This document shows, piece after piece, positions 9,889 through 61,345 of a stretch of DNA of 64,000 nt. Both the position numbers and the translations under genes were made by a program. Each line of letters begins with the position of its first letter. Within the stretch, counting starts at the first letter, position 1. Below the pieces are notes generated by a model. The model saw only the letters and a program-made list of their open reading frames with translations. It ran no database searches and had not been told where the DNA came from. Origin of the DNA: a bacterium (GTDB lineage: Bacteria > Patescibacteriota > Dojkabacteria > SC72); contig JAJTYH010000003.1 of assembly GCA_021463465.1 (NCBI GenBank), forward strand, positions 147,549 to 211,548, in the 5' to 3' direction.

Positions 9889-11022
9889 ATGAATCCAACT
9901 GCCCCTCAAAACTCAACTGCAGATTTCAATTCAGATATTGCATTGATTGAAAATAAGCTTAATGCCGTTAAGCTACCTCAAGAACTTCTAGAATCTACTA
10001 CCAGAACCATTGGAAGACTTAGGCGTATGGCTTCACACGGTAACTTTTCCGCTGAATATGAATCTGTAGATAAGTATGTAGATTGGATCACCCAAGTCCC
10101 ATGGGGCAAACTTACTCAGGATAATTTGGATATTGCGAATGCCAAAAAATTGATGGATAGCTCTCATTACGGTATTGATGTAGTGAAAGACGTAATCCTT
10201 GATTATCTCTCTGTTATGAAATTGCAGATAGATAGCGGGTTTAAAAAACAAGAGATTTCCGGCGATGCAGCTATATTAAGAGGTAACTCTGCTAATGCCC
10301 CTGTAATGCTTTTTGTAGGACTTCAGGGTGTTGGTAAAACCTCTATTGCTAAATCAATCGCTCAAGCAATGGGTCGTAAATTTGTGCGTGTTTCTCTTGG
10401 TGCAATTGGGAGTGTTCAGATTTTGCGAGGACAGTCCAAAGTATTTGCCGACGCTGAACCCGGACAGATTGTGAAAGCACTTATTCGCTCTGGAACTATG
10501 AACCCACTAATTCTACTTGATGAAATCGATAAGGTAAGTGGTAGCGGGGGATTACTTTCGGATGTGATGGCTGCGTTACTTGAGATTCTTGACCCTGAGC
10601 AAAACAGTCACTTCCTTGATCATTATGTAGATTATCCGGTCGATTTGTCACAGGTATTCTTTATTTGTACTGCTAACAACCTTGGAGGACTTTCCGCAGC
10701 ACTCCTTGATCGTATGGAGATCATTAGATTTACCAGTTACACCGATGAGGAAAAGACGATCATTGCTAAGACATACTCCATGCCAAAAGTTTTGAAAAAT
10801 ACTGGACTAAGACCAGACCAGATTGTGATAGAAGAGAGTGTATGGCCAATTCTAGTTAGACCAGTGGGTTTTGATGCTGGTTTGCGTCAGCTGGAACGAA
10901 ATATTGCAACCATGATCAGAAGTGCTGCACGAATGATTGTCGAAGGAACACCTACACCCATTACTATTACTCCTGAGAATGTAAGGAAATTTGTATTGCC
11001 TGATCAGGGCCCTCTTAGTTAG
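9889..11022 (+). CDS. Lon-derived AAA+ ATPase module, lacking the N-terminal LAN domain and the C-terminal Ser-Lys protease domain
   Basis: 'YVDWITQVPW', 'SHYGIDVVKDVILDYLSV', Walker A 'GLQGVGKTSIAKSIAQAMGRKFVRVSLG', 'LLDEIDK', 'ALLEILDPEQNSHFLDHYVDYPVDLSQVFFICTANN', 'LLDRMEII'. All are collinear with the Lon A ATPase core. The ORF stops after the alpha-helical lid (377 aa). Confidence 0.7.
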   Translation: MNPTAPQNSTADFNSDIALIENKLNAVKLPQELLESTTRTIGRLRRMASHGNFSAEYESVDKYVDWITQVPWGKLTQDNLDIANAKKLMDSSHYGIDVVKDVILDYLSVMKLQIDSGFKKQEISGDAAILRGNSANAPVMLFVGLQGVGKTSIAKSIAQAMGRKFVRVSLGAIGSVQILRGQSKVFADAEPGQIVKALIRSGTMNPLILLDEIDKVSGSGGLLSDVMAALLEILDPEQNSHFLDHYVDYPVDLSQVFFICTANNLGGLSAALLDRMEIIRFTSYTDEEKTIIAKTYSMPKVLKNTGLRPDQIVIEESVWPILVRPVGFDAGLRQLERNIATMIRSAARMIVEGTPTPITITPENVRKFVLPDQGPLS

Positions 11023-12860
11023 TTTTGCTTTGTATATCCTTCAGCTTGCTTATGGAATGCCTCAGCATATAGTCCGTCGTGCTTCAAAAGTTCAGCATGA
11101 GATCCTTCCTCTATAATACTACCTTTTTCGAAAACGTATATTTTTTGTGCATTTCTCACAGTAGAGAAACGGTGGGATATAATTATGACACTTTTGTTAT
11201 TAACAAACTCATAAATTCTTTTGAAAATTTTGTACTCTGCCAGAGGGTCAATAGATGCAGTCGGTTCATCAAGAATGAGAATCGGAGAGTCTCGATAGAA
11301 CATCCTAGCTAAGGCTAGCTTCTGCTCCTGCCCACCGGAGAGGTTTACACCGCCCTCGAAGCTCTTTCCCAAAGTGGTATTGTAACCCTCGGGTAAGCTC
11401 ATTATGAATTTATCTGCTTCTCCCAGTTTAGCTGAAGCTTTTACTTGCTGAAGGTTAAATTTCTTGTCGACGCCTAAAGCTATATTTTCAGCAATAGTCA
11501 GTGAATCAAAAACTTTATAGTCTTGGAAAAGTACGCCTATTGCCGTGTAATAACTCTCAAGATTCACCTCTTTGAGGTTTATCCCATTTACCAATATCTC
11601 ACCTTCTGTGGGATCGAACACTCTGAGTAATAATTTAATGAATGTAGTTTTCCCAGCTCCGTTCTCTCCGACAATTGCAATCTCTTCAGTTGGGTTGATT
11701 GTTATACTTAAATTCTTCAAAGCATACGGTTTTGAATTAATATATTTGAAACTTACATCTTTGAATTCAATCTTTGGTGGGAATAATGTGTCGATTCTAA
11801 TATTGCCAGAGATAATCTCATTCTTAATTTCAAAGGCGGCTTTAACTTGTTCTACACCGATGGCTAAATCGAAGAGGTTCGCTACATCATTGGTCAATGA
11901 ATCAAGTTCCTGCATAAATCTATAGGCGGTTGAGGTGAAGAAACCAAATGAACCTACAGTGATTACTCCTTTAAAGAGATCGGTTAAAAAGACAACAGGT
12001 ACAACTATTTGATTAAAACCGTAAAAGAAGGATAAGAATATGTTTGATTTGGCAACATCTTTGTTGATTTTCATTTCATCTCTAACTAAAGGGGTGTTAA
12101 GTCTCTTGAAAATATTTACCAGTGTGGTGTTAGCGAGCATCACTCTGTTCTGGGTCACACTTCGGTGACTGACCAAGTAGTACTTTGCCTCGTTTCTTTT
12201 CATAATATTGTTCAAACTAGCGTTATAGAAATTGTAGAAAATGGAGACGAACCGTATCGACTGAATTGAACTGGGTATACAAGATATCAAAAGATAGATG
12301 GTGAAGATCCAGTTGTGATTGAAGAGTATGGAAAAAGATGTAATCAGCGAAACAAATCCAGTTAATATCTCAAAGAGACTCATTACATAATTACGAATCC
12401 TCCAAATATTCTCTTGTGCCTTTATTATTGCCTTGGAAGATGCAGGGTCTTCAAACCTCGCAATGTCCATCTCTGAGATTTTTATGTGCAATTCCAGCTC
12501 GTAGTTTTTTAGGTATATGACCCGAAACTTCTCGTTTAGATACCTTAACACTTCCGTAAGCACTTTCTGTACAAGCACTAGAAGGGTAATGAAGATTAAG
12601 AGTTGCATATATGGGCGTTGCAAGGAAATTGCTTCGCTGAATGTGGCGCCGCTATTAACCAGTTCAATCAAAAGGTCTAAACCTTTTGCGGAGTAAAAGG
12701 CTAATACTGTTGGAATAACGGCGGAGATAATTGTCAAAACAATAGTCAGAGCGGTATTGCCTACCGAAAGCCTGAAGGTCTCTTTTATCGTCCAGACTGA
12801 AAGTTGAAAGAACTTCTTAATATTTTCTTTGGTGTATTTTGGAGAGTTATTCTTGCTCAT
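11019..12860 (-). CDS. ABC exporter, fused permease-ATPase (MsbA/ABCB-like half-transporter) with canonical motifs
   Basis: Walker A 'GENGAGKTT', signature 'LSGGQEQK', Walker B 'ILILDEPT', H-loop 'IIISHRFS'. N-terminal six-TM domain. Confidence 0.8.
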   Translation of the reverse strand: MSKNNSPKYTKENIKKFFQLSVWTIKETFRLSVGNTALTIVLTIISAVIPTVLAFYSAKGLDLLIELVNSGATFSEAISLQRPYMQLLIFITLLVLVQKVLTEVLRYLNEKFRVIYLKNYELELHIKISEMDIARFEDPASSKAIIKAQENIWRIRNYVMSLFEILTGFVSLITSFSILFNHNWIFTIYLLISCIPSSIQSIRFVSIFYNFYNASLNNIMKRNEAKYYLVSHRSVTQNRVMLANTTLVNIFKRLNTPLVRDEMKINKDVAKSNIFLSFFYGFNQIVVPVVFLTDLFKGVITVGSFGFFTSTAYRFMQELDSLTNDVANLFDLAIGVEQVKAAFEIKNEIISGNIRIDTLFPPKIEFKDVSFKYINSKPYALKNLSITINPTEEIAIVGENGAGKTTFIKLLLRVFDPTEGEILVNGINLKEVNLESYYTAIGVLFQDYKVFDSLTIAENIALGVDKKFNLQQVKASAKLGEADKFIMSLPEGYNTTLGKSFEGGVNLSGGQEQKLALARMFYRDSPILILDEPTASIDPLAEYKIFKRIYEFVNNKSVIIISHRFSTVRNAQKIYVFEKGSIIEEGSHAELLKHDGLYAEAFHKQAEGYTKQN

Positions 12861-13089
12861 GTATTCAGACTATATTCCTTTAAAAGGGTTTTTCAGCTGA
12901 AGAGCTTGGAGCTCTTGTGGGATATTGGGATCTAGCTTTGGTTTAGGTCGCGCTTTGGGCGGTGCATTTAATGTCTGATTAGAACTTTTATCTTGCATAC
13001 TCGTTTCTGCTGCCTTAATTGCATCCAAATCACTGCTTACCAGATCAGCTGGTAGGGTACTTGGATTGACCTGGGTAGTAACCAGATAA

Positions 13090-15489
13090 TCATTCGTTAT
13101 TGGGTTGTTTGCCTGTGGTGGCGTTTGGGTCGTTGGATTCATTCTCTTGATTAAATGTAACTTCACCTTGTGGTGTGATATGCATTTTGCCTTCGTTCAT
13201 TTGGTTGCGTTGATGTACGACCTGATCGGTTACACTTTTTGGTGCGTCTTGCAAGAAAGGACTCGCGCCAACTCCGTAGGTTTGACCTTTTTCTTCAGCT
13301 TTTTGTTTCTCTTCCAGATACTGTTGATAACTTATTTTGTCTTGCACAAGTTTTTTGATATCGGTTTTTCTTTGCTCAATTGCTTGTTGAACTACGTCTC
13401 GTTGATTGACGTTAACACCTGACTTGATTGGGCGTTGGACTGCTGGAGGGTCGTAGATTTGTGCTATCTCTTCAATGGTTCGATTAGCGTTCACGCCTTC
13501 TTTGGCCATTCTTTCAAGTTCGACAGGGTTAGTAGTGATGAGCTCGTTCTCGGCAATACTTGATACCACTTGGATTGCCACATGGTTGGAACCTGCAAAA
13601 AATAATCCTTGTCCTAAATCACAAGTAAGTAGGAAGGACTTCTCTCCTTCGGAAAGGTTGAATATTTTCTGAAGTCTTTCAACTGAAGAAGGACTCTGCT
13701 TCATCAACATTTGAATAGTGGAGTTGGAGATGATGGCTCGCCCCATGTCGTTTTTCACGAAGTCATCAACATCTTGAGTGATGGTGGTAAGACCTAAGTA
13801 GTATTTTCGAGCGCGCTTAGCAATCGAATACATAAACTTAGCGGATTCAGGATATTGCATCATGTACCAAGCCTCATCAACTACTAAAATTCTGCGCTTC
13901 TTATCTTTTCGAATACGAGTCCAGATGTAATCCAACATTAGGTACATAGCCATAGGTCGGAGTTCTTCCTGAAGGTCGCGTACTGAGAATACGGTGAAGG
14001 CGTTATTTAGTTCTACGGTGCTTCTCTCGTTAAAGATACCAGCACCACTCCCCATGATGAATCGCTCTAAACGTCTCGACATATCGTGTGCTTCATTTTC
14101 TGCCATTCCTTTGAGTACTTTGTAAAGATCTTCCAATAAAGGATAGTTAGCATTACGTTGTGTAGTTGGATCAAGATTAATACCTTTCTCTCGGTATGTG
14201 AGCAGAAGAGCGCGGTCAAGGATTGACATCTCAATGTTATTTAGTCCATCAAAAAGGATTCGGAAGAACCCTTGAAGTGAGAGTAGCTTCATTCGAAGCT
14301 CATCATCTTCTGGGTCTCCTAAGCCTGAAAGTTCGAAAGGATTCATCTTGTCGCCTTTGTCTTGCGAGAACGAGATGTAGGCACCTTGTACGGCTTCACA
14401 TAGGTCTTTGTATTCATGCTCAGGGTCAATGATGATAAGTTCCGCGCCAAGCATTAGACTACGGATAGCTTCAAGCTTCACAAAATAGCTCTTACCAGCA
14501 CCAGCTTTTGCGAAGACTACTGTATTAGCATTTTCCAATGAGAAGCGGTCAAAGATAACCAAACTGCGGTTATGTTGGTTGATGCCATACATGATTCCAT
14601 GGTCCATAGTTAGCTCGGAAGTCACAAACGGGAAGGTGGTAGCAAGGGATGTAGTGTCCATGTTTCGAGTGATATATAAACGGTCCAGTCCAAGTGGTTG
14701 TGTACTTATTAAACCTTGCTCTTGCTGAAGCATGGCGGGGTTAGCAGTTACATTAATAGAAGCCAGGGGGGAGATTGCATTCTTAGCGATCTTTTCGAGC
14801 ATCTCCTGGTCTTTAGAAGATATGGTGATGTACATACCGAAGTGGAAGAATTTTTCAGTACCCTCAGCAATAGAATCTTGTAGCTGTTGAGCATCTGACA
14901 GTGCGACCTTAAGTGATGGATCGACTACTTTTCGCCCTTCCATTTGCTGATAGATGGTTGCCTCCATTTCACCAATCTTTCTCTTTAGCTTTTCTAAGAT
15001 AACCTTGGAATCTACTGGGTAATAAAAGGAGGAGATTCTAAGTGAATATTCAAAGTTGATTATAGGGGAGAGCCAGTTGGGTCCTACGAATCTGGGATAT
15101 CCGCTGACAAATAGGGTACGGTAGTATGTGTCGCCGATATGAACATCATTGAAATCTACTTCAAGGTCAATAGGGGCAATAATATCCTGAATGGTTAATC
15201 CTTCGTATGCCTTTGGAGGTTCAAGTCGTCCTGAAGGTTTATCATCTTTTTTCTTTTGAGGCTTGAACAAATCAAGCAGGAACTGCAGGGGGTTCTTCTT
15301 GTCAGTTTGCGTATCTTCGAATTTCTCCTTCTGTTGAATCAGAGTTCTTTTATCTCTATCTGCTGCGACTTCCTCATGAATTGCACGAATCTTCTCTTGA
15401 GGGTTCTCAAGCTTCTTCGCACGATCTTTCATAAGCCCTTGGGTTTTTGAGTCGTAGGTTTTAGTGAAGTTTAGTTTCTCCTCAGGCAT
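13090..15489 (-). CDS. VirB4/TrbE/CagE-family type IV secretion ATPase
   Basis: 799 aa. Walker A 'VVFAKAGAGKSYFVK', Walker B 'RRILVVDEAWYMM'. The N-terminal domain pattern 'YYRTLFVSGYPRFVGPNWLSPI' is typical of VirB4/TraE proteins. The C-terminal tail is low-complexity and Q/N-rich. Confidence 0.75.
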   Translation of the reverse strand: MPEEKLNFTKTYDSKTQGLMKDRAKKLENPQEKIRAIHEEVAADRDKRTLIQQKEKFEDTQTDKKNPLQFLLDLFKPQKKKDDKPSGRLEPPKAYEGLTIQDIIAPIDLEVDFNDVHIGDTYYRTLFVSGYPRFVGPNWLSPIINFEYSLRISSFYYPVDSKVILEKLKRKIGEMEATIYQQMEGRKVVDPSLKVALSDAQQLQDSIAEGTEKFFHFGMYITISSKDQEMLEKIAKNAISPLASINVTANPAMLQQEQGLISTQPLGLDRLYITRNMDTTSLATTFPFVTSELTMDHGIMYGINQHNRSLVIFDRFSLENANTVVFAKAGAGKSYFVKLEAIRSLMLGAELIIIDPEHEYKDLCEAVQGAYISFSQDKGDKMNPFELSGLGDPEDDELRMKLLSLQGFFRILFDGLNNIEMSILDRALLLTYREKGINLDPTTQRNANYPLLEDLYKVLKGMAENEAHDMSRRLERFIMGSGAGIFNERSTVELNNAFTVFSVRDLQEELRPMAMYLMLDYIWTRIRKDKKRRILVVDEAWYMMQYPESAKFMYSIAKRARKYYLGLTTITQDVDDFVKNDMGRAIISNSTIQMLMKQSPSSVERLQKIFNLSEGEKSFLLTCDLGQGLFFAGSNHVAIQVVSSIAENELITTNPVELERMAKEGVNANRTIEEIAQIYDPPAVQRPIKSGVNVNQRDVVQQAIEQRKTDIKKLVQDKISYQQYLEEKQKAEEKGQTYGVGASPFLQDAPKSVTDQVVHQRNQMNEGKMHITPQGEVTFNQENESNDPNATTGKQPNNE

Positions 15490-16108
15490 TTTCAGAAGGG
15501 TTATAAATATTATAGAAAAGTTCCATTAATTCTGGGTTTGTTAACTGATGCCCTGCAAGGCCCATACGTCCGAGTTGTTTTAGAATGTGGTCGCGTTTAG
15601 GATAGAGGAAAATCTTGCTTCGCTCAACCAGCTTGTCGATTTCAAGAGCAACTTTTTGGTCACTTCGCTCCTGTTTGAGAATACCTGCACTTGTAATTGA
15701 AGCAACCGGATTGTAGAAAATTACGATATAAAACTTCTTATCCAATACATCATTTTGTACGATGAGGTTTTGGATGAAGGTAGTGTAGATTTGAAGCTGT
15801 TTTTTAAGCCCCTCGCTCATGTTCGCCTGATTCTGGGCTTTGAGATAGTTAACGTAATTAGAGATGTCGATTCGGTTGGTTTTGATTAGAATTTGGATTG
15901 GAAAATTGAGGGAGTTAAGTAGTCCTGCAAAAGCATAGATTTTATTATCCTGCTCATATTCAGATAGCAAGTCAAAGTTCACCGCTGTAGTTTGTATCAA
16001 CAGAGCTGCACTACCAGAAGTCGTTACGACCAAATCATCAACGATGTCTTTCATTTCTAAGTGCTCTTGTGTTGATGCTGTGGCTCTCGCCCTAGCTTTT
16101 GGATCCAA
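15482..16108 (-). CDS. Hypothetical protein between the PrgI-like gene and the VirB4 gene (T4SS-associated by context)
   Basis: 208 aa, no TM helix. It overlaps both neighbours by a few nt, which suggests translational coupling within a three-gene operon. Confidence 0.35.
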   Translation of the reverse strand: MDPKARARATASTQEHLEMKDIVDDLVVTTSGSAALLIQTTAVNFDLLSEYEQDNKIYAFAGLLNSLNFPIQILIKTNRIDISNYVNYLKAQNQANMSEGLKKQLQIYTTFIQNLIVQNDVLDKKFYIVIFYNPVASITSAGILKQERSDQKVALEIDKLVERSKIFLYPKRDHILKQLGRMGLAGHQLTNPELMELFYNIYNPSENA

Positions 16109-16109
16109 G

Positions 16110-17075
16110 TTAGTTAGCTAATATTTTAATAGGTGGGATTTCTGGTTTATCCATTATCAATTGTATTGGCGAAAAGGTGTATCCTGATGCTTGAATTTCA
16201 ATATTATACGCGGCTGGAGTAAAAGGTTTATTGGAAAGTACATCTCCATTCGCATCTGATTGAAGCGCTGAAATTACCCTGTTTTGTTCATCCTTTATTA
16301 CTAGTACTGCCTGAGAGATTGGCTGATTTTCTTTATTTAACAGTTTGAAGTTGAGATTTCCTGCATATGGGCCTGGGTTAGTTAGGGTAGTGGTGAAGTT
16401 AGCAAGATTATCTGGGGTAAGTCGAAGTCTTTGATTAGAAACAGGAGTATTGGGTGGTTGAGAAGGTGTTGTGATTGGTGCCGTTGCTTGTGCCTGGGTT
16501 TGTACCGGTACCTGAGAGGAGGGTGTGAAAGTAGGTGAAGGGGTAGGTGTGGGAGTAGTTGCGCCAGCACCTTGCAGAACTTGATCGATTCTAGCTAGTT
16601 CAGCTTGCTCTTGTTGGTCAAACTCATCGAGTTTGCTTTGTTCGATAAACTGGGTAGTTGGTGTGTCGGCTGTTCCACCAATAATTTCGCCATTCCCTCG
16701 AGTGGCGTTTTCTCTATTCATGGTGCCTTGGGTCATATTGAATTCAGGTTTGATCTTTTGGATTTTTTCATCAATTATCTCGTTTTTCCATACTCTTTGG
16801 GTAGGGTGGGTAATGGCCCAGATGTAGTTTTTGGCAAATACGTCAGCTTTCTGGTCGTTGATGTTTATCAAACCTAAGAAAAGACCAATGCCTGAGGAAA
16901 GTAGGAAGACGGGAAAGGATACTATGCCTGGAAGCTGGCCTAGAGTATAATAGTAAAGGAAAATTCCTCCAAAACCGATGCCGGTAGCCATATAAACAAA
17001 CTCCCTTACCGTAAATTTGGTGAAGAGCTTGAACTCGATATCTAAGATATTTTGAGGAATTGCGTGCTGTCTCAT
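16110..17075 (-). CDS. VirB3/PrgI-like two-TM membrane protein, extended by a Thr/Pro-rich linker and a C-terminal transthyretin-like/CarbopepD_reg-like beta domain
   Basis: N-terminal hairpin of two TM helices (FVYMATGIGFGGIFLYYYTLGQ / IVSFPVFLLSSGIGLFLGLINI). The gene is immediately upstream of the VirB4 gene, as in Gram-positive T4SS loci. Linker 'TTPTPTPSPTFTPSS...TTPSQPPNTP'. C-terminal domain 'ANGDVLSNKPFTPAAYNIEIQASGYTF'. Confidence 0.45.
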   Translation of the reverse strand: MRQHAIPQNILDIEFKLFTKFTVREFVYMATGIGFGGIFLYYYTLGQLPGIVSFPVFLLSSGIGLFLGLININDQKADVFAKNYIWAITHPTQRVWKNEIIDEKIQKIKPEFNMTQGTMNRENATRGNGEIIGGTADTPTTQFIEQSKLDEFDQQEQAELARIDQVLQGAGATTPTPTPSPTFTPSSQVPVQTQAQATAPITTPSQPPNTPVSNQRLRLTPDNLANFTTTLTNPGPYAGNLNFKLLNKENQPISQAVLVIKDEQNRVISALQSDANGDVLSNKPFTPAAYNIEIQASGYTFSPIQLIMDKPEIPPIKILAN

Positions 17076-20803: not shown

Positions 20804-21361
20804 TTACTTACATAGATAATTCAATGTTTGTGCTGAATCCAAAACAGCTGATTTGGTTTTAGTGATGGTTTCAAAATCTCCAATTAGTTCCATTGCTTGG
20901 GTAGGGTGATCATATTCAAATAAGTCTAATGTAAGCGTGTGATTATCTGGACGAAATATTGCCACTGACAGTTTGTCATCTGCTAGGTTACCAGGTGCAA
21001 TTATTGCCAAGAAATATGGATTACCTTCTTCGTAACAGATTGCTAACCCTCTTACTTTATCGCCTTCGACTAAACTTTGAAGTCTCTTGTTTCGTGTTGA
21101 AGTTTGATTTAAAGCGTCAAGAACAAAATTCATAAAGTATGTTTTTAATGGCTTCATCGAAACAGGCATTAAATCTACTCTGGGGCAGACAAAGATGGTC
21201 TTTTTCTCTTCGCTTACTTTTAATTTAATGGAATTACCCAACCCTAACTCCACATACATAATTATTGACTCGGCAATTTCTTGAATTGGGGTGTTTTTGA
21301 ATACTCTTAAAACTTCAGACTTCTTTGGATGTTCTTTTACAAGAGTTACTCCTGATGTCAT
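20804..21361 (-). CDS. Hypothetical protein
   Basis: 185-aa ORF, overlapping the upstream gene by 4 nt. Confidence 0.4.
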   Translation of the reverse strand: MTSGVTLVKEHPKKSEVLRVFKNTPIQEIAESIIMYVELGLGNSIKLKVSEEKKTIFVCPRVDLMPVSMKPLKTYFMNFVLDALNQTSTRNKRLQSLVEGDKVRGLAICYEEGNPYFLAIIAPGNLADDKLSVAIFRPDNHTLTLDLFEYDHPTQAMELIGDFETITKTKSAVLDSAQTLNYLCK

Positions 21362-21801
21362 AATTCAAGTCCTGGATATTCATCAGCTCTGCAAATCTCG
21401 ACTAAATTATCCCGTGTTCCTTGAATTATTCTTGGATCTGATGTGAACGTGAAGTAGACTGCCTTTAAAGTTCCTTTGTCATTTTGTTCTGGTACTTCGG
21501 AGATAACTGGAGGAATAACATAAAACTCTTCTCTATTAAGAAATTTCGTCAAAATCAATCCTAACGTTTCCTCAACAAATTTTACCTTATCATTAAAGTT
21601 TTCGTCGTTTTGTATTGTTACAGTTATGGATATACTCTTATTCTCATCAAATCTGGTTTCTGTTGTATTTGTAAAGGCTTCTTCACTGACAGTAAGTACA
21701 CCTTCTGAAATTAAATCCTTTAATGTAGTCTCTATTTCGCTTTTGGCTTGAGTGTATCTTTGTTCTAGTGAGTGATTAGGCTCCACATGGTCAGCTACCA
21801 T
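21358..21801 (-). CDS. Hypothetical protein
   Basis: 147-aa acidic ORF, with an ATGA overlap to the downstream gene. Confidence 0.4.
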   Translation of the reverse strand: MVADHVEPNHSLEQRYTQAKSEIETTLKDLISEGVLTVSEEAFTNTTETRFDENKSISITVTIQNDENFNDKVKFVEETLGLILTKFLNREEFYVIPPVISEVPEQNDKGTLKAVYFTFTSDPRIIQGTRDNLVEICRADEYPGLEL

Positions 21802-21857
21802 ATAATAAGGGTGAATATATTATAGGGTGTTATTTTACTACTTTAAGTGGCAAAAAT

Positions 21858-22415
21858 CTATTTTTGCACTATAGTAACCTCAACATTTTCGTTGAAGCGT
21901 AAGGGGGTAGAAGTATCGAACTTCAAATACATAATATCTTTAGTTCTGTCGGGGATCCTTATATTGGCGACGTTTGTTATCCCATTCTCATCCTGTATGA
22001 GATACTCTTTCTCACGGTAAATAAGGTAAAGAGGAATATTAGTTCGGTTTGAACTACCGCCAGTGACTTCAAGGTTCATTGCGCTTTCGTAATTATTGGA
22101 AAGTTGAAGTATTGGTTTGGAGTAGCTTCCGATGTCGTGTTTAATCATCTGTGCTTCATACTTGCTAACACCTTCACTTGGGAAGCTGATTCGTTCGTCT
22201 TTGAGGAAATCATGGACTCCGCCAACCATTACGACTGAAACATCTTTCTTACTTTCAACTCCGAGTACATTGTTTACCTGATTGGAACGAGGGGAAAGGT
22301 TTACAACCGTGAGAGCAGGGAGTACGAAGACAGCAAGGAGTAAAAAAAGGCCCACAGGGTCAAGGAATTTACCGAGTTTGTTGTATACCCTTTTGAATTC
22401 TCTACTAGCCATCAT
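21858..22415 (-). CDS. Hypothetical membrane-anchored extracytoplasmic protein
   Basis: N-terminal TM helix (LFLLLAVFVLPALTVV) followed by a soluble domain. Confidence 0.4.
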   Translation of the reverse strand: MMASREFKRVYNKLGKFLDPVGLFLLLAVFVLPALTVVNLSPRSNQVNNVLGVESKKDVSVVMVGGVHDFLKDERISFPSEGVSKYEAQMIKHDIGSYSKPILQLSNNYESAMNLEVTGGSSNRTNIPLYLIYREKEYLIQDENGITNVANIRIPDRTKDIMYLKFDTSTPLRFNENVEVTIVQK

Positions 22416-22963
22416 AGATATCTGTTGCTCTCCTCTGGGTATATTCTATCAGTTTCTGACTCAAATGTCTTAAGCAAACCCCAGGTTGAAAGTAGTGCGA
22501 GTGCTCCTCCTAGGATACCCACCCAGGAATAAGTCTGCATATTAACGCTGCTTGCGATTGTTACACCGGCAATTATCCAAAGAAAAACTGTCCAAATTAG
22601 CATATTTACCAAGTTGCTTTCTTGGCTTGTGACCCATTTCAAGATGTTTAGTCTGGTCAATTTGACGACAATTCTTGGATTGCTTTGTGCGCTTTTGAAA
22701 AGTGTAAGACGAATGAGCATGTAAAAGGTCGGTAGTGCTATCACAAGCAAAGTGATAAGGTTGGAAAATGAATTTACAAAAAGAGCTGATTGAATGTCAG
22801 TTAAATAAAGTTGAATAGTGAAGATGGAAGTAACATCATTAGTTACAAAGAAATTATTCCCGAGATAGGAAATGAGGAAAAAGACCGAAAGAAACTTACC
22901 AGTCACAAGCAGTGAAGCTGGCAAGATTGCACTTTTAAGCGCTTTTCTTAGCAGTTTCGACAT
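22412..22963 (-). CDS. Hypothetical polytopic membrane protein
   Basis: At least four hydrophobic helices. Its start overlaps the rpsT stop. Confidence 0.4.
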   Translation of the reverse strand: MSKLLRKALKSAILPASLLVTGKFLSVFFLISYLGNNFFVTNDVTSIFTIQLYLTDIQSALFVNSFSNLITLLVIALPTFYMLIRLTLFKSAQSNPRIVVKLTRLNILKWVTSQESNLVNMLIWTVFLWIIAGVTIASSVNMQTYSWVGILGGALALLSTWGLLKTFESETDRIYPEESNRYL

Positions 22964-52101: not shown

Positions 52102-52117
52102 TTTGAGGTAAAAAAAT

Positions 52118-52420: not shown

Positions 52421-52424
52421 AGCT

Positions 52425-52562: not shown

Positions 52563-52616
52563 CTTAATATCCTACAAATGTTTGTATAACTAATCAAGAT
52601 TAGTTATATTATTACC

Positions 52617-54479: not shown

Positions 54480-55847
54480 ATGAATATGGATCGTAATGAC
54501 AAATACAAGCGCTATTCAGGATTGATGCTGTTTTTATTGCTTATTGTCGGAATTTCATCCGCTATAATTGTTCCGCATTTTAACTTTGTTTCTAAGGCTC
54601 AGGGATTGTCGCAGGATTTAGCTCAAACTCCTCCGGTTACATCTGTTGAAAGCATTGAGACAGGAGAGGTGCAAGCGGCAACAACTGAAGAACAAAAAGC
54701 AAGTAAAGGGTTTGGTAAATGTATGAATGGGAGTGTATGTGATTATGTTCAAGAATTAACTTATCAACCTGTCTGTTCAATTAACGATGCAGGTGGAAGT
54801 ATGACTGGTGGAGATGCTAATGAAGGTAAGAAGTTTGTCTCAGTAAGAATGAATGCTAAGGTCGAGCCTTTTATAATAACGGTTCCTCAGGTACTACTGC
54901 AAGGGAGTAAATATGTAGAAGATGATCGTAAATTAATAAGTAAAGATTATCCTGTATATCGCGACTCACAGCACGTAATTCTCGATGATGAAGCTAGGAG
55001 AACATGTGCACCAGGTGTTGATTGCGCGGATTATGATGAGCTTTCAAAGCGTCCTGATGTACCTTTTTCGCTTCACGCTTTTATGGAGGTTAAGAATGCT
55101 GATGAAGGGGGATTTGGAGGTGATGGGAAAGCAGTAATTTACTCTTTAGATTCATTGAGATCTGCTTGTCCGAAAGTCCAAAAGGCAAAGGCCAACCCTA
55201 AAAAAGCAGGCTTTTATGCTGCTAAATTGGATGTTAAGCATCAGGCACCAGGGGTGCATGAAACCTGGAGAGATTTTGGAGGAGTGGAATGTTACAGAAC
55301 TAACCCAAATGGAATGCATTTACAGGAAGCAAAGAACTTTGTGAGCTGCGTTACAGAGGTTAAGCCGACAGATTTTGTTGTCAGCGCTGTATATAATATT
55401 GCCCAGTGGCTTGAGTGCTTAGATGGTGGGGCGGAATGCGAAGAGTATAGAGTTTTTGCAATTAGGTTAGACGCAATGTTTGGAGGCGTATTTAAATGCG
55501 CTGGTGTTGATTGCGAGATTCGTTTCTTTGATTTTGAGAAACTAAAGACCACCGCACCTGGTGATGCTCAGGAGATGATTCCTGATTATATAGATAAGTC
55601 TTTAGTTAATCCGATTCGTCCAGTTACTGAGCCTTATTACCTTACAACTCCATGTAAAATTAGGATTAATAAATGGGGGATTCATAATGTACCTTGTCTT
55701 TGGGATATCTCTCCATATCAGAGGCATTATGAAGTACAAAGATCTGCGTTAATGCCTTTAGAGCCTACGATGCCATTGACATTTGATGACTATTGGAATA
55801 ATGGGGTTGCTCCAGAGCTTAAAAAAAGATCACTATCATGTGTATAA
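54480..55847 (+). CDS. Secreted or TM-anchored Cys-rich protein (455 aa)
   Basis: TM 'LMLFLLLIVGISSAIIV', then a domain with more than 20 Cys residues. Confidence 0.45.
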   Translation: MNMDRNDKYKRYSGLMLFLLLIVGISSAIIVPHFNFVSKAQGLSQDLAQTPPVTSVESIETGEVQAATTEEQKASKGFGKCMNGSVCDYVQELTYQPVCSINDAGGSMTGGDANEGKKFVSVRMNAKVEPFIITVPQVLLQGSKYVEDDRKLISKDYPVYRDSQHVILDDEARRTCAPGVDCADYDELSKRPDVPFSLHAFMEVKNADEGGFGGDGKAVIYSLDSLRSACPKVQKAKANPKKAGFYAAKLDVKHQAPGVHETWRDFGGVECYRTNPNGMHLQEAKNFVSCVTEVKPTDFVVSAVYNIAQWLECLDGGAECEEYRVFAIRLDAMFGGVFKCAGVDCEIRFFDFEKLKTTAPGDAQEMIPDYIDKSLVNPIRPVTEPYYLTTPCKIRINKWGIHNVPCLWDISPYQRHYEVQRSALMPLEPTMPLTFDDYWNNGVAPELKKRSLSCV

Positions 55848-55875: not shown

Positions 55876-57306
55876 ATGTTAGTAGAAATTGCAAAATTTA
55901 TTAAAAAGGTAAGTAGCGAGCGAAAATGGGTAAACTATTTAGCTGGAATCCTTACAGTATTCATGTTCTTTAGTGTAATGAATATCTATGCTCAAGAAGC
56001 GGGTGCAACTATTAAGCTCGACCCAGTGGAAGGGTATAGAGCTGAAACGGCACTTACTAAAAATGGTACAGGTGATACGTCGTATAACAGTCAGACAACT
56101 ACAATGAACGTTATATTAGGAGCTCTAAATGGAGCACTGCAGAATATGGCTCCACAGTTGCTTAGTAACTTTGCAGCAATAGAGTCTGATCCGGCTGTTC
56201 CTGCATATGCAAAGATGGGTGCATTAGGTTTAGCTGGCGAAGGGGTTAATGCAATGATGAATAACTATAACGGCGTAAACATAGTTAATTATATGGCAAG
56301 CGAATGGGTACCCGGGTATGATAAATCTACAAGTGTTTATGCCGCTACAGATGGTTATAGTTATTTAGATGAGAGCAATGTTGATGTGTTGTGGGATAGA
56401 ATAAGGCTCATCACTTACGTGCTTTTCGTTGTTGTTTTAATAGTTGCTGGCTTTATGATTATGTTTCGACAGAAAATCGGTGGGCAACTTGCTGTTAGTA
56501 TCTTTAATACTCTTCCAAATGTAATCGTTGCACTAATACTAGTTACCTTCAGTTTCGCTATTGTAGGGCTAATGCTTAATGTGGGCGTTATGATAATCAA
56601 CGTGATGACATCGGTATTAGGTGTTGCTGACCCACTCACCATTGAGAATCCATTTAGTCTGTTTGGAACTGCTATGAATGGAGAGCTGTTGGGTGGTGGG
56701 ACGACAGCTGCTTTAGTTATTGGGCCGGCAATAATTGCAGGGTTAATTGCTGCAGTTACAGCTACAGGTGGTGCGGCTCTTCCTGCGGTTGTTGCTGCGA
56801 CTGTAACCGTAATAGTAATTGCAGTTATTCTTACGGCAATAGTTATTTATGCTTCAATTCGTGTTTACATAACCCTATTGATTGCATATTTAGGGATTAT
56901 AATAAATACAGTTATGGCGCCTATATTTTTAGCCATCTCTGCCTTCCCTGGTCAAAGTGGTATGGCATCAGATTGGTTCAGAAGAGTTTTAAAAGCCGTT
57001 CTAACTTTTCCAATTGTCTATTTTTTCTTAAACCTTGGTATGTTTATAATCAATGGAGATATTAATCTTGGTTTCCCGTCAGGAATAATGAGTGGGGATT
57101 TCACCCAGGTTGACACTAATGGAAGCCCAGTTGGAGGATTTATAAAAGCAGTATTAGTATTGTTACTCTTTTTCTTTGCTGCTGATGCACCTAAGATTTT
57201 GGATGACTTCTTACCATCTAATGAAGGTAAGGGTGTTGGTAGTGCAATTGAAGGTGCGAAGAAAGGTCTGTCCAAGATTCCTGTTGTTGGTTCCCTATTG
57301 GGTTAA
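55876..57306 (+). CDS. Polytopic membrane protein, VirB6/TrbL-like: signal peptide, extracytoplasmic domain of about 150 aa, then 5-6 TM helices
   Basis: 'LAGILTVFMFFSVMNIYAQEAGA' signal. The later TM helices are rich in Gly/Ala/Ile/Val ('TAALVIGPAIIAGLIAAVTATGGAALPAVVAATVTVIVIAVILTAIVIYA'). Confidence 0.45.
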   Translation: MLVEIAKFIKKVSSERKWVNYLAGILTVFMFFSVMNIYAQEAGATIKLDPVEGYRAETALTKNGTGDTSYNSQTTTMNVILGALNGALQNMAPQLLSNFAAIESDPAVPAYAKMGALGLAGEGVNAMMNNYNGVNIVNYMASEWVPGYDKSTSVYAATDGYSYLDESNVDVLWDRIRLITYVLFVVVLIVAGFMIMFRQKIGGQLAVSIFNTLPNVIVALILVTFSFAIVGLMLNVGVMIINVMTSVLGVADPLTIENPFSLFGTAMNGELLGGGTTAALVIGPAIIAGLIAAVTATGGAALPAVVAATVTVIVIAVILTAIVIYASIRVYITLLIAYLGIIINTVMAPIFLAISAFPGQSGMASDWFRRVLKAVLTFPIVYFFLNLGMFIINGDINLGFPSGIMSGDFTQVDTNGSPVGGFIKAVLVLLLFFFAADAPKILDDFLPSNEGKGVGSAIEGAKKGLSKIPVVGSLLG

Positions 57307-57321
57307 TGGAGCAATAATTAA

Positions 57322-60303
57322 ATGGCGAAGTCAAGAAAACCAAAAGGATTTTCAGATCCACTTGATTCCATATTTGGCTTTATTTTTACTGGCGCTAAAT
57401 CTAAACCAGTAAAGACAAGGCCAACAAGATTTACAGGGGTTAATGCAACCGAGATGTTAAGCCAAGGACTTGCTGAAATTGCAAGTAAACCTGCTAACTA
57501 TGTTAGTTCTGCTCTCATGGAACCCGTTAACCAGTTGGCAAATGGGGTGAAGATTTCAGAGTTTCATCTAGATCGATTTGATGACTCGTTGCTAAAGAAT
57601 CTTGATAACTCAGCAGGTCGTTTTAGAATCCGAGGTGGGGATTTAGCTAAGTTCATGAAGGACCCAAATAAATTTGTTGACTCGGTTTTTCAAGGTGCGG
57701 CTGAGGAACGTAAATGGGCTAGGTATCTTAATATTGGACGAGGGATGGATACCGCGCTGCTCACGGCCTGGGCGAAGAAACAAGGTTTTAGCTCTAAAGA
57801 TGCATTGCAAATAGGTTTGGCAACAAGTAATTTTTTGGGTCCTGACCAAACGCTTGAAGCTAAAAAGAAACAAGCTCAGAACTCAGTTCTAAGATATCTT
57901 GATAGTAGGAGTGGTACATCTAAAGTATCTAAAACGATTTCCAGTCAGACACTTGAAGCATTAGAAAAATATAAAGGAGCTGGGTTTAGGAGTGAGGCAG
58001 AGCTTGAAAAAGTTTTACGTACTGTCCCTGGACTTGCCACTAGAAGTGATTTCTCAACGATAGTTACTGAGATTTTTGATGGCTATGCTGACGAAGCTTA
58101 TGGTAAGAAGGATGCAACTACGGGAGAGAGAAAAGGCGGTAAATGGAATAGTATAGGTGGTGGCTGGTTAACGGATGGCAAATTAAACCGCAATGGTTAC
58201 ATCTCAGTTTTGAATGATAACTATTTACAAAGAGCGAGCCTACTTGATGCGACTGATCCACATCAAGCTCTAGAACAAAGACGGTTGTTGGCGGCAAGGC
58301 AGTCATTATCAACGCTTTTAAGGCTTAAGGGCCCCAGTTTTAATCCGATTGAGGCAAGTGCAACTTTTGGTAGCCAAATCGATAGTATTAATAAAGAAAT
58401 TGAAAAAATGAAAGCTAGGGCTGGAACAGCGGGATTAAACGCCAGACAAAAGATTTACGCATCAAATTTAGAAGGCATTGCAAAACAGATTGAAGCAGCA
58501 ATTGCTGAAGGAGATAAGGCTGCGCAAAGAAAAATGCAACGTAGATGGTTTGGTTTTCAACCTGTTGGTGATTTTTCTGCCTATAGGAAAGCTATGGTTG
58601 CGGATGTTGATTTAGAGATCGAGAGGGCTGGTTGGCAGGCGATATCCCCAGGTCTTTCAGCGTCCAAAAAGGAATACTACAAGAATCTTATAGCATCTTT
58701 AATGCAAAGAAAGAAAGAGTTGAGATCTGCTCCTCTCAGAGATTGGCGAATAATAATTGCTGATACTGTTGGGGCATATAGGTCTATAGATGGAAATATT
58801 AGACAGGGAGGATTAGCTGGTGGAATAATTTCTGGATCGATTTTTACAAATGATTACTTTAGTCCAGCACAAGGTCAAAAGTTTATTGTCAAAAGATTTG
58901 AGAAATCAACATTTGGAAAAGTATGGGAAAACGAAGTTCCAGTAATGAGGGGTGATATTAATCAGAATTATGCATCAATGACAAGCTTGTATTATTTTAC
59001 ACCTGGATCACTTGCCAAAACATTCTTTTTTAATGGTGAAGGTTTTTCTAGATTGCTATTAAGGCAAAGAGTTAATAATCTTAACTCTATTTTGACTCCT
59101 TCTGCATTAAGTAGTCTTAATGGCTTTTTAAACGCATCACCTTCACTCCTAGCTTCGTTAACAAGTGCTGGTTGGGCAAAAGGAGGGAAAGTCAATTTAG
59201 ATGTAGGCTCACTTGTTTACGATTTACCTGGCTTTATGAGCGCCGTTGAGAAAGGTGGAGGTGCTAAAGCACTAGGTCCATTATGGGGGCAACTTACTAA
59301 GGTCTATAATACTGATCAAAACGGTCCAGTGGCTCAAGCACTTCGATTTTTTGGGACACCTCAGAGGAACTTAGTTAAAGTTGCTACATGGTATGAGGCA
59401 ACATTTCGAAAACCTTTCGGCCAATTTTTACATACAAAGGTATACCCTAAAATTTTAGGTAGGAAGTTTGCGGAAAAGATTGCCCTTACAGGGAGTATTA
59501 AAGCCGCTATTTCAGCCATTGTTACTGATGCCTTGGTTGCGTTGGGTGTATCAATTGGTGGACCAATTGGTGCTGTAGCTGCATTTATAGTGACTTTTGT
59601 AGTTGAGGATGTTTTATTAAAAATAGCTAAACCATTAGTTAAACTTTTTTTCCTCGTTTTATGGTCTACGGTATTAGTTATAGTAGCCTTTATAGGTTTT
59701 GTTCTTATAATTTGGCCATCGACTTACCCACTCCCTCAGCAGCATAAACCACCCCTTGATGCGATGGCATGTGGTGGTGGAAACCCTTTTAGTGGTCTTT
59801 ATAATTTCCAAACCGTCCAAGCAAGCAATATCCCAGATGCGCCACCAGGTTCAACATGCCCTATTCTTAGCCCATCAATGTTATGTTCTCAAGGCTCGGG
59901 CCCAGGTTCTTCAAGCTATCACTCTGCAAGGCAAAGTTTGGATATAAGTGCCAGAGGTTTAGCTGATACTGTTTGGTATGCGCCTACCAACGGTACTGTA
60001 GTATCATTTTCTGCGAGAAATATATGTAATGACGGCGCTGACTATGGAGGAGCACTAGTATTTAGAGATAGTGCCGGCACCACATATACTCTTTTACATG
60101 TAAAGGCACTTGCTTCGGGTCCTGTAAGTAAAGGTAAACCAGTAGCAATAATTCAAACGGATTTAATACCTAGTGATTGTTGGACGGGTCCGCACTTCCA
60201 CCTTGACGTACAGACTGGAGGAGGGTTTGTAAATACAGAGACTTGGTATAGGGAGAAGTTAAAATGTAATATCACTAAGGCTGCACCGAGCTGTAATGGA
60301 TAA
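57322..60303 (+). CDS. Giant (993 aa) protein: hydrophilic N-terminal region of about 700 aa, 2-3 TM helices, C-terminal M23/LytM metallopeptidase domain
   Basis: TM segments 'AAISAIVTDALVALGVSIGGPIGAVAAFIVTFVV' and 'FFLVLWSTVLVIVAFIGFVLIIW'. The C-terminal domain carries 'HSARQSLD' (HxxxD), 'GGALVFRDSAGTTYTLLHVKAL' and 'GPHFHLDVQ' (HxH), the M23 zinc-ligand pattern. Confidence 0.6.
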   Translation: MAKSRKPKGFSDPLDSIFGFIFTGAKSKPVKTRPTRFTGVNATEMLSQGLAEIASKPANYVSSALMEPVNQLANGVKISEFHLDRFDDSLLKNLDNSAGRFRIRGGDLAKFMKDPNKFVDSVFQGAAEERKWARYLNIGRGMDTALLTAWAKKQGFSSKDALQIGLATSNFLGPDQTLEAKKKQAQNSVLRYLDSRSGTSKVSKTISSQTLEALEKYKGAGFRSEAELEKVLRTVPGLATRSDFSTIVTEIFDGYADEAYGKKDATTGERKGGKWNSIGGGWLTDGKLNRNGYISVLNDNYLQRASLLDATDPHQALEQRRLLAARQSLSTLLRLKGPSFNPIEASATFGSQIDSINKEIEKMKARAGTAGLNARQKIYASNLEGIAKQIEAAIAEGDKAAQRKMQRRWFGFQPVGDFSAYRKAMVADVDLEIERAGWQAISPGLSASKKEYYKNLIASLMQRKKELRSAPLRDWRIIIADTVGAYRSIDGNIRQGGLAGGIISGSIFTNDYFSPAQGQKFIVKRFEKSTFGKVWENEVPVMRGDINQNYASMTSLYYFTPGSLAKTFFFNGEGFSRLLLRQRVNNLNSILTPSALSSLNGFLNASPSLLASLTSAGWAKGGKVNLDVGSLVYDLPGFMSAVEKGGGAKALGPLWGQLTKVYNTDQNGPVAQALRFFGTPQRNLVKVATWYEATFRKPFGQFLHTKVYPKILGRKFAEKIALTGSIKAAISAIVTDALVALGVSIGGPIGAVAAFIVTFVVEDVLLKIAKPLVKLFFLVLWSTVLVIVAFIGFVLIIWPSTYPLPQQHKPPLDAMACGGGNPFSGLYNFQTVQASNIPDAPPGSTCPILSPSMLCSQGSGPGSSSYHSARQSLDISARGLADTVWYAPTNGTVVSFSARNICNDGADYGGALVFRDSAGTTYTLLHVKALASGPVSKGKPVAIIQTDLIPSDCWTGPHFHLDVQTGGGFVNTETWYREKLKCNITKAAPSCNG

Positions 60304-61345
60304 ACTATTTGAGTTTGTAAAAAACAATAAACAAATTACGATTATTACTGGTGGGATTCTAGTGCTAATTGTACTTGTAATATTTACAATTCTACCTGAA
60401 GGGACTAAAGGTGGTGTTGCGTTAATAGAACAACCACTCTACTTCTATAAATCTAAAAGGATAAGTATACCCGTCAAACTTGCCCAAGATACGAAGGTGA
60501 ACACCAAGCCTTGGAATATTTACCGTATTAAAAATGATAATCAGAATATAAAGGTTGAAGGTATAATAACCAAACTAAATATTGATAATCCTTCTAAAAA
60601 GGTAAGCGGGGGTATCTTGTATGAATGGAGTAATAAGGATGGAGATTTGGTTCAGTACGATGTTAAAACTCAAACAATGAGTTTAGTAATGCAAAATAGG
60701 ATAGAGGTTTTTCCTGAGTTAGGAGTTGCAAGTGATTCTCAGCTAATGGGGCTTTTGACCGATTTTATCCATAAATATGTTGATAACTCGTATGAGTATA
60801 AAGAAGTAAATGTAGTGAAGTTAGGAAATGGATATAAGATTGAAGGTAGAAGATTGGTTAATGGTGTGGCGCTCCAGACTCCTGGTTTAAGCAAGTATCA
60901 TGATTATATTGAGTTAGATAATCAATACAACTTGAAATTAGCGAGGGTTGTGCTAGTTGAACTTGAGAGTGAAATTGCTGATAAAATAAAACTTATTAAA
61001 CCGAATGAACTTGGGAGCGTAGTCTCAAGAGACGCCTATCCAAAGGAATTTAATCAAGACTTCCCGCAAGGATTGGATATTGATAAGGGTAAAAGTGATG
61101 ATTCAAATCAGGACAATCTGGGAGTAGAGATCCCAAAGGTTAGCAATATTACTGTTGAGTCTATGGAAGTTGTATATCTATTTAGTAATGTGGATCAGCA
61201 GTTTCTTGTTCCAGTTTATAGGCTAGAAGGCAAAAGCAGAGTGGTAATTGCTGGGAGGGAGTTTGAACTTAACAGTGTTGTACATGCAAGTGCAATTGAT
61301 CCTGACCATGTATATATACCCTCTAATATACCTTTCGCTCCTTAA
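60296..61345 (+). CDS. TM-anchored extracytoplasmic protein (349 aa), possibly VirB8-like
   Basis: TM 'ITIITGGILVLIVLVIFTIL', then a soluble domain of about 310 aa. It overlaps the upstream gene by 8 nt. Confidence 0.4.
   Translation: MDKLFEFVKNNKQITIITGGILVLIVLVIFTILPEGTKGGVALIEQPLYFYKSKRISIPVKLAQDTKVNTKPWNIYRIKNDNQNIKVEGIITKLNIDNPSKKVSGGILYEWSNKDGDLVQYDVKTQTMSLVMQNRIEVFPELGVASDSQLMGLLTDFIHKYVDNSYEYKEVNVVKLGNGYKIEGRRLVNGVALQTPGLSKYHDYIELDNQYNLKLARVVLVELESEIADKIKLIKPNELGSVVSRDAYPKEFNQDFPQGLDIDKGKSDDSNQDNLGVEIPKVSNITVESMEVVYLFSNVDQQFLVPVYRLEGKSRVVIAGREFELNSVVHASAIDPDHVYIPSNIPFAP

Follow-up and report, generated by a model that had tools for sequence, protein, structure and literature searches.

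Type IV secretion systems (T4SS) carried by Candidate Phyla Radiation bacteria (CPR, or Patescibacteria) are by now a known kind of machine, published in 2023–2025 and covered in a review (PMC12857230). A survey of 3,035 genomes found VirB4 in 2,417 genomes, TrsD in 2,221 assemblies, 1,649 VirB3 proteins, and relaxases in 103 genomes; the Patescibacteria-clade VirB4 nests in the MPF-FATA group, with TrsD and VirB3 as its commonest neighbours, and the Dojkabacteria genomes included were scored VirB4-positive (Quinonero-Coronel et al. 2025, Microb Genom; PMC12102498). In Southlakia epibionticum, transposon sequencing (Tn-seq) showed that epibiotic growth requires the T4SS, for which neither a coupling protein nor a relaxase could be recognised (Wang et al. 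2023, Cell; PMC10633639). Here we describe a virB4-centred operon in a 64-kb stretch of DNA (hereafter the window, meaning the whole stretch analysed) from a member of Candidatus Dojkabacteria, a CPR lineage. This operon very probably encodes the core motor of a Patescibacteria-clade T4SS (a VirB3-like protein, TrsD, VirB4 and the product of orfD), with a VirB6-like partner locus 39 kb away and a non-conjugative role in contact with a host.

The MPF-FATA prototype, the Prg/Pcf system of pCF10 (Enterococcus faecalis), is plasmid-borne, and its VirB4 counterpart, PrgJ, is a single polypeptide; both it and the window system are adapted to a monoderm envelope. The Trs/Tra system of the staphylococcal plasmids pGO1/pSK41 (TrsC-TrsD-TrsE) represents the sole MPF-FATA subclass with a separate TrsD upstream of VirB4 (TrsE). 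Unlike the window system, however, the plasmid pGO1 is conjugative and encodes both a relaxase and a type IV coupling protein (T4CP), and it has no VirB6 homologue (PMC12102498).

A parallel occurs in Pontibacillus sp. ALD_SL1 (NZ_CP062975.1, 351–361 kb), where a T4SS-like cluster on an 898-kb non-mobilizable replicon comprises, in order, pilin-like genes, a polytopic protein, a small ORF (open reading frame) in the PrgI position, TrsD, a short VirB4 and an M23 peptidase, with no relaxase or T4CP within 12 kb. Its VirB4 is among the closest outside the CPR (36% identity, E = 4e-110). In contrast to the window system, it belongs to a free-living member of the Bacillota and forms one cluster, with flagellar genes directly adjacent.

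Sequences compared

Relatives' loci were collected by scanning one genome per species with the window VirB4, which yielded 80 Dojkabacteria loci at 60–84% identity; the synteny counts below are from tblastn of window proteins against these 80 species-level loci. L084 and L085 are Dojkabacteria loci holding the virB6-like region, L081–L083 are loci with distant VirB6-like homologues, L087 and L088 are contiguous clusters from sister lineages, and L089 is the Pontibacillus locus.

A four-gene operon around virB4

Between 12.87 and 17.08 kb, the minus strand of the window carries four tightly packed ORFs, in the order prgI, trsD, virB4, orfD. The corresponding features are as follows.

16110..17075, minus strand: prgI/virB3-like gene, 321 residues, Pfam PrgI
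15482..16108, minus strand: trsD-like gene, 208 residues, free-standing homologue of the VirB4 N-terminal domain
13090..15489, minus strand: virB4, 799 residues, CD1110/MPF-FATA-type ATPase
14488..14511, minus strand: Walker A motif of VirB4, AKAGAGKS, residues 327–334, found by regular-expression search of the translation
13873..13890, minus strand: Walker B motif of VirB4, ILVVDE, residues 534–539, found in the same way
12870..13166, minus strand: orfD, 90 residues from the ATG at 13142 or 98 residues from the GTG at 13166

The first three genes had been noted in an earlier reading of this DNA made from the sequence alone (the sequence-only reading), and they are indeed present. That reading described all three as overlapping, which is correct for trsD and virB4 (8 nt, ATGCCTGA), whereas prgI and trsD are separated by a 1-nt spacer; the start codon of trsD is TTG. 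It also overlooked the fourth gene, orfD, which overlaps the 3' end of virB4 by 53–77 nt. The module is a four-gene, translationally coupled operon, and its flanks are as ordinary as had been supposed (by Pfam, an ABC exporter, a nucleotidyltransferase, recF and lepA). A promoter/terminator consensus scan of 12.7–17.4 kb found no more sites than in shuffled sequence and was therefore uninformative.

The 799-residue protein scored 382.7 bits against the NCBIfam model NF045971 ("VirB4-like conjugal transfer ATPase, CD1110 family"; curated cut-off 325), and it also matched Pfam P-loop_TraG (E = 8e-29) and the VirB4 C-terminal domain of PDB entry 4AG5 (E = 1.3e-49). It had been called a canonical VirB4 with the typical N-domain: the Walker A and B motifs are intact, but the full N-domain is not carried, the missing piece being the 208-residue TrsD. 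Profile searches, which the sequence-only reading had proposed as a check, thus returned a CD1110-family VirB4, PrgI and TrsD from NCBIfam and Pfam.

The closest homologues of VirB4 (62–81% identity over the full length) belong to Candidatus Dojkabacteria/WS6 wherever they are named, and among the best 120 database homologues (62–100% identity) those named are from Dojkabacteria/WS6 or other CPR. Outside the CPR, the closest VirB4s are from Bacillota and Actinomycetota, at 27–38% identity. Two low-complexity charged extensions of the protein, at residues 1–93 (15211–15489, minus strand) and 640–799 (13090–13570, minus strand), are kept across Dojkabacteria and are absent from the 606–641-residue VirB4s of L087 and L088 and from the 621-residue Pontibacillus VirB4.

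TrsD and the VirB4 N-terminal domain

The 208-residue protein, which had previously been described simply as soluble, has no match in the copy of Pfam searched, and a search of its profile against PDB sequences gave no meaningful match. When it was compared with VirB4_plasma, a full-length mycoplasma VirB4 model, it covered positions 102–237 (E = 6e-8), and the 799-residue protein covered positions 254–891. As the two proteins match successive stretches of one model, both are collinear with a single VirB4. Database homologues of the 208-residue protein carry PF26593 ("TraC-like"), and an AlphaFold2 (AF2) model of it, of moderate quality (predicted local distance difference test, pLDDT, 64), retrieved R388 TrwK/VirB4 chains as all of its top 14 matches in the whole PDB, the best with E = 1.5e-3 and probability 1.0. 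Comparison by hhalign with the 274-residue ORF upstream of the Pontibacillus virB4 gave a probability of 99.6 (E = 9e-24). The gene adjoins virB4 in 77 of the 80 loci.

A complementary observation came from BLASTP, by which residues 94–633 of the window VirB4 aligned with residues 218–772 of PrgJ (25% identity, E = 1e-40). Because the alignment begins at PrgJ residue 218, the first ~217 residues of PrgJ are without a counterpart in the 799-residue protein. By the profiles and the modelled fold, TrsD is a detached VirB4 N-terminal domain that is encoded separately, so that in the window system a separate protein replaces the first ~217 residues of the single-polypeptide PrgJ. The score against the NCBIfam TrsD/TraD model NF041427 was 26.3 bits (E = 5.6e-6), well below its curated cut-off of 200; consequently, the protein is a remote homologue (TraC-like, with a VirB4 N-domain fold) and not a member of the staphylococcal TrsD/TraD subfamily.

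The PrgI/VirB3-like protein

Pfam PrgI matched residues 6–95 of the 321-residue protein with E = 7.7e-6 and 26.8 bits (gathering score 27.0). The protein has two hydrophobic helices, at about residues 25–44 and 51–69, and can be divided into three parts, namely a two-helix membrane domain (1–100), a variable Pro/Thr-rich linker (~100–220) and a conserved beta-sandwich-like domain (221–321); this pattern of conservation is common to 68 Dojkabacteria PrgI-like orthologues. When the C-terminus was searched alone, it matched CarboxypepD_reg (E = 7e-4), and the combination of PrgI with CarboxypepD_reg recurs in L087. A gene of this type lies upstream of trsD in 69 of the 80 loci, and the L087 and L088 homologues are called PrgI. 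The region comprising linker and Ig-like (CarboxypepD_reg-like) domain spans 16110–16523 on the minus strand (residues 185–321).

Given the usual N-in/C-in topology of a two-helix VirB3, the Ig-like domain would be cytoplasmic, which is unusual for such a domain; the prediction follows from the presence of two helices with positive charges on both flanks.

A distal VirB6-like locus

On the opposite strand, near the other end of the window, four consecutive genes deserve attention.

54480..55847, plus strand: Cys-rich protein, 455 residues, N-terminal membrane anchor, immediately upstream of virB6-like
55876..57306, plus strand: virB6-like gene, 476 residues, polytopic with ~7 predicted hydrophobic segments, 39 kb from virB4
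57322..60303, plus strand: M23-like protein, 993 residues, candidate wall-remodelling (VirB1-analogue) subunit
60296..61345, plus strand: bitopic protein, 349 residues, N-terminal transmembrane helix, overlapping the 993-residue gene by 8 nt

The 476-residue protein has no Pfam, NCBIfam or PDB sequence match, and its close homologues are all Dojkabacteria "hypothetical proteins". When its AF2 model (pLDDT 73) was searched against the whole PDB, the top 5 matches were all R388 TrwI/VirB6 chains, although these matches were modest (E = 0.04–0.5, probability 0.72–1.0, target-normalised template-modelling score 0.38–0.50). By hhalign, its profile matched the 779-residue polytopic protein of Pontibacillus (probability 90.8, E = 1.2e-6), which is encoded just upstream of the PrgI-position ORF and the genes for TrsD and VirB4.

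Gene order in other lineages points in the same direction. In L081–L083, distant VirB6-like homologues stand directly after arrays of 5–6 T4SS_pilin genes (PF18895). The L087 and L088 clusters read pilins, ~1000-residue protein, VirB6-like, one opposite-strand gene, PrgI, TraC-like, VirB4, and in L088 a Peptidase_M23 gene then follows; the order VirB6-like, VirB3-like, VirB4, wall hydrolase is also that of pCF10. Identities of the L087 and L088 proteins to those of the window are 55–57% for VirB4, 45–47% for TrsD, 22–26% for PrgI and 31–32% for the VirB6-like protein. Because three independent lines (fold, profile and synteny) tie the 476-residue protein to VirB6, we consider it, with moderate confidence, to be VirB6-like and a probable channel subunit. 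The family has no HMM (hidden Markov model) match, so profile-based surveys would miss it.

The distal locus is the other half of the T4SS machine. The sequence-only reading had raised the possible pairing of the virB4 module with a distant VirB6-like locus, and fold, profile and the contiguity in L087 and L088 bear this out; conversely, its description of the module as minimal, or VirB4-only, does not fit what is half of a multi-locus T4SS. In none of the 80 loci did a distal-locus protein turn up closer than 10 kb to virB4, and in three other genomes the two halves, as located by locus tags, are 34–46 genes apart, as in the window. Around the distal half, the syntenic order is pnp, rsmB, rsmE, fn3 proteins, a protein X, VirB6-like, a ~1000-residue protein, a ~350-residue protein, an SH3 protein and uvrD.

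The other members of this locus are less easily assigned. The 993-residue protein consists of a ~720-residue soluble N-terminal region, 3–4 predicted transmembrane segments (728–797) and a C-terminal M23-like domain (GPHFHLD), and its gene is syntenic with virB6-like in L084 and L085. As a candidate, it fits the M23-type VirB1 analogues reported for the CPR (PMC12102498). The M23 proteins that follow virB4 in L088 and Pontibacillus have no detectable similarity to it, and BLASTP against the Pontibacillus M23 protein was null.

The 349-residue gene is likewise syntenic in L084 and L085, and its product, which has no Pfam, NCBIfam or PDB match, is possibly a VirB8-type scaffold, its membership being uncertain and suggested by synteny. 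The position of the 455-residue protein is kept in both loci, the L085 protein found there having a weak SLT match; the protein itself has no family match, and its belonging to the T4SS, again suggested by synteny, is uncertain. The SH3 protein, too, may be linked to the T4SS through its conserved position. NCBIfam searches of the distal-locus proteins returned nothing except SH3, and PDB sequence searches with the 993-, 349- and 455-residue proteins gave no meaningful match.

Upstream of virB6-like, 48649–54455 (plus strand) encodes two membrane-anchored surface proteins of 1150 and 612 residues with fn3/purple-acid-phosphatase-N domains, together with a 100-residue DUF948-like protein. This arrangement is kept in L084, and in sister lineages a VirB2-like pilin array occupies the same position. 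The fn3 surface proteins may act as adhesins with a functional link to the T4SS.

Inheritance of the module

The gene order around the motor is nearly fixed among Dojkabacteria: u183, u185b, lepA, recF, (nucleotidyltransferase), prgI, trsD, virB4, orfD and a convergent lon-like AAA+ gene. RecF was detected in 60 of the 80 loci, LepA in 58 and Lon in 71, besides the counts for TrsD and PrgI given above. GC content is even across the window (about 0.39–0.41), and neither a tRNA scan nor an Rfam scan of the whole window gave a match.

When essentially every window ORF of at least 90 residues was searched with Pfam, no T4CP, relaxase, integrase or T4SS pilin domain was found. Of 16 pCF10 transfer proteins used in tblastn against the window and 87 related loci, PrgJ alone gave matches; in particular, PcfC and PcfG gave none. 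In comparison with pCF10, therefore, no T4CP (PcfC), relaxase (PcfG) or adhesin (PrgB) was found, nor any sequence homologues of PrgL, PrgK and PrgH detectable by tblastn, and the window system is chromosomal and fixed. The earlier statement that neither VirD4 nor a relaxase lies nearby stands for the whole 64 kb by both Pfam and tblastn. Because no relaxase or coupling protein accompanies it in the 64 kb, the module is probably not a conjugation apparatus.

These data also bear on the idea that the three genes represent the decayed remains of a monoderm integrative and conjugative element (ICE) or plasmid, either functionless or mobilised with a relaxase and T4CP encoded just outside the window. 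Such an origin would suit a VirB4 of the conjugative CD1110/MPF-FATA family whose closest non-CPR relatives are on Bacillota and Actinomycetota plasmids, and our inspection covered 64 kb of the genome. It is hard to reconcile, however, with a single gene order between lepA-recF and lon in 80 species, with a VirB4 that is 60–84% identical across species and retains intact ORFs and motifs (implying purifying selection), with the lack of a compositional island, and with a window that contains no integrase, tRNA, relaxase or T4CP, these being missing from related loci as well up to 10 kb from virB4. Moreover, plasmid-borne VirB4s, all of them from monoderms and the best from Bacillota and Actinomycetota, are at most 38% identical to that of the window. 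On account of the fixed synteny, flat GC content, absence of mobility genes and low identity of the plasmid homologues, we rejected the ICE-fragment explanation, which we judge extremely improbable. The T4SS module is vertically inherited and chromosomal, and of monoderm (MPF-FATA) ancestry.

The fourth gene, orfD

An ORF that overlaps or abuts the virB4 stop codon and ends in NPF[KRE]G-x-stop was present in 73 of 74 related loci with a complete region, with a median overlap of 32 nt. These ORFs encode 61–111 residues, apart from a single 13-residue case that probably lies in a locus with masked bases. The consensus of the tail is ...aL+LxNPF[KR]G-x-stop, in which N, P and F each occur in 72 of 73 sequences; it is preceded by a disordered, variable, Pro/Gln-rich N-terminus, and no transmembrane helix is predicted. 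No Pfam or NCBIfam match was found for orfD, and phmmer against 1.84 billion representatives retrieved 11 called proteins of 80–104 residues. Since virB4 is not followed by such a gene in L087 and L088, the sister-lineage clusters, orfD appears to be specific to Dojkabacteria. As a guess, its product could be a cytoplasmic partner or a substrate of the motor.

Taken with the features described above, orfD raises the possibility that the Dojkabacteria T4SS has been remodelled into a split-locus and possibly pilin-less machine, in which orfD and the VirB3 Ig-like domain would act as lineage-specific cytoplasmic adaptors that select a non-DNA substrate or gate the uptake of host macromolecules. 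We regard this as unlikely. If it were true, the VirB4/TrsD motor might recognise the NPF[KR]G tail as a signal for docking or for secretion, and the fn3 surface proteins would replace pilins as the contact device.

Mechanism and role

Under the reading that we favour, a non-conjugative Patescibacteria-clade T4SS motor with a distant VirB6-like partner, one of the closest known systems is that of Southlakia (SEML1_0006-0019). Both are chromosomal, have no relaxase nearby and possess an MPF-FATA-type VirB4 with TrsD and PrgI/VirB3 immediately upstream, as well as a divergent VirB6 and an M23-type peptidase. They differ in that Southlakia, like L087 and L088, has a single cluster and the window system is divided between two or more loci that lie 39 kb apart; in addition, the window has no pilin array, and it has orfD after virB4, an Ig-like domain in its VirB3-like protein, and the VirB4 extensions.

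By analogy with the solved VirB3–VirB4 complexes of R388, TrsD and VirB4 would together reconstitute a full VirB4, which would dock at the membrane through the VirB3-like protein. As in R388 and in T4SS biology generally, a VirB4 hexamer would then power the assembly of, and transfer through, an envelope-spanning VirB6-type channel, while the protein with the M23-like wall-hydrolase domain would presumably open the peptidoglycan. Analogy with Southlakia suggests contact-dependent exchange with a host bacterium as the likeliest role, that is, export of effectors or a pilus and possibly uptake of macromolecules.

Several points weigh against this reading. The PrgI match is 0.2 bits under the Pfam gathering score. 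For the VirB6 assignment, the fold match is weak (E = 0.04), the pLDDT of the model is a moderate 73 and the probability by hhalign is 90.8. Peptidase_M23 matched the isolated C-terminus of the 993-residue protein with only E = 0.007, under the Pfam threshold. None of three hhalign comparisons with pCF10 was significant, namely the PrgI-like profile with PrgI (E = 0.075), the VirB6-like profile with PrgH (E = 0.12) and the TrsD profile with the PrgJ N-terminus (E = 0.14); these null results are due to the pCF10 proteins being too distant as single sequences. Placement in the Patescibacteria clade relies on identity proxies rather than a tree, a T4CP or relaxase may be encoded elsewhere in the genome (our scan covered only 64 kb, and according to the literature most CPR genomes have VirD4-like homologues at a distance from virB4), and the putative function is extrapolated from one Saccharibacterium.

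To these can be added the lack of a VirB2-like pilin in the window, where we found no small two-helix ORF and no PF18895 match, and where tblastn with sister-lineage pilins was null. Most CPR T4SS loci have a pilin, and here it may be elsewhere in the genome or absent. Among Dojkabacteria-type loci, the significant matches in the same tblastn were all in L006, with one marginal match (E = 0.008) in L065. The L006 matches lie at 85–701 (minus strand), ~9 kb upstream of virB4; pilin genes thus stay close to the motor in some members of the group.

The direction of transport is where the other serious alternative arises, namely that the system is a Ced/Ted-like importer in which VirB4 pulls host DNA or RNA into the CPR cell to make up for missing nucleotide synthesis. 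The archaeal Ced (CedA/A1/A2/B) and Ted systems, with which the sequence-only reading had associated the module, are likewise centred on a VirB4-family protein and relaxase-less, and they act in contact-dependent cell-to-cell transfer. An importer would agree with our finding no relaxase or T4CP, both of which are required for DNA export, and with the CPR being without nucleotide biosynthesis; in Southlakia, moreover, comEC is dispensable and the T4SS is not (PMC12857230; PMC12102498). A 2026 preprint also ties the monophyly of Minisyncoccota VirB4, together with tubes resembling T4SS pili, to the acquisition of host RNA.

However, the window VirB4 is not of the Ced type. It scored 57 bits against CedB (NF041017, cut-off 700), compared with 383 against the CD1110/MPF-FATA model, and 20 bits against CedD (cut-off 600); none of the four operon proteins had a CedA-type NCBIfam match, and the partners of VirB4 in the window (PrgI, TrsD and VirB6-like) are parts of a bacterial monoderm T4SS. 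We therefore rejected membership of Ced/Ted on the HMM scores. To our knowledge, no bacterial MPF-FATA-type T4SS has ever been shown to act as an importer. The sequence holds nothing on transport direction, and export of effectors or pilins is taken as the default; an importer of this sort seems to us improbable.

Neighbouring genes

The ABC exporter gene (11019–12860, minus strand) begins 10 nt past the orfD stop codon and may be co-transcribed with the operon here. We rejected it as a conserved operon member, because a position after orfD is confined to the five closest relatives (L001–L005); outside these, the ABC homologue is 6–9 kb off and mostly on the opposite strand. Beyond it, 9889–11022 (plus strand) encodes a 377-residue protein consisting of the Lon AAA+ module only (TIGR00763 positions 251–567), without the protease domain. 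This gene is convergent with the T4SS operon and lies directly past virB4-orfD in 71 of the 80 Dojkabacteria loci.

On the other side, 20804–22963 (minus strand) holds genes for four small proteins (185, 147, 185 and 183 residues) without a family match, two of which (a membrane protein with 4–5 helices and a single-helix protein) are kept upstream of lepA in 48–50 of the 80 loci. A sortase and large DUF11/bacterial-Ig surface proteins are encoded at 24114–25970, 31685–33796 and 35178–35984, all on the minus strand, representing surface equipment typical of an epibiont. The remaining genes of the window are housekeeping genes (groEL, folD, alaS, holA, ruvX, nusA, infB, pnp, dnaJ, the gene for S20, and uvrD at the end).

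Implications

The window does not reveal a new kind of system; it provides a clean Dojkabacteria example of one. The sequence-only reading was right that modules of this kind are widespread in the CPR, with a presence in about 80% of CPR genomes (PMC12102498). It had also suggested that the composition was worth characterising, a point overtaken by the phylum-wide survey (PMC12102498) and by the demonstration that the system is essential in Southlakia (PMC10633639). What is added here is the two-locus layout in Dojkabacteria, the HMM-invisible VirB6-like family, orfD, and the parallel, relaxase-less cluster of Pontibacillus.

The two-locus layout implies that surveys confined to 20 genes around virB4 undercount the components of the system, and the HMM-invisible VirB6-like family may explain the scarcity of VirB6 reported for some CPR classes. 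With its invariant C-terminal motif, orfD is a lead towards a possible partner, or substrate, of VirB4. From the Pontibacillus cluster it seems that a pilin-bearing, relaxase-less architecture also occurs in free-living monoderms, an observation relevant to where the CPR system came from. Few machines are known to be indispensable to an epibiotic way of life, and the CPR T4SS is one of them, in a very large and for the most part uncultured section of the bacterial tree.

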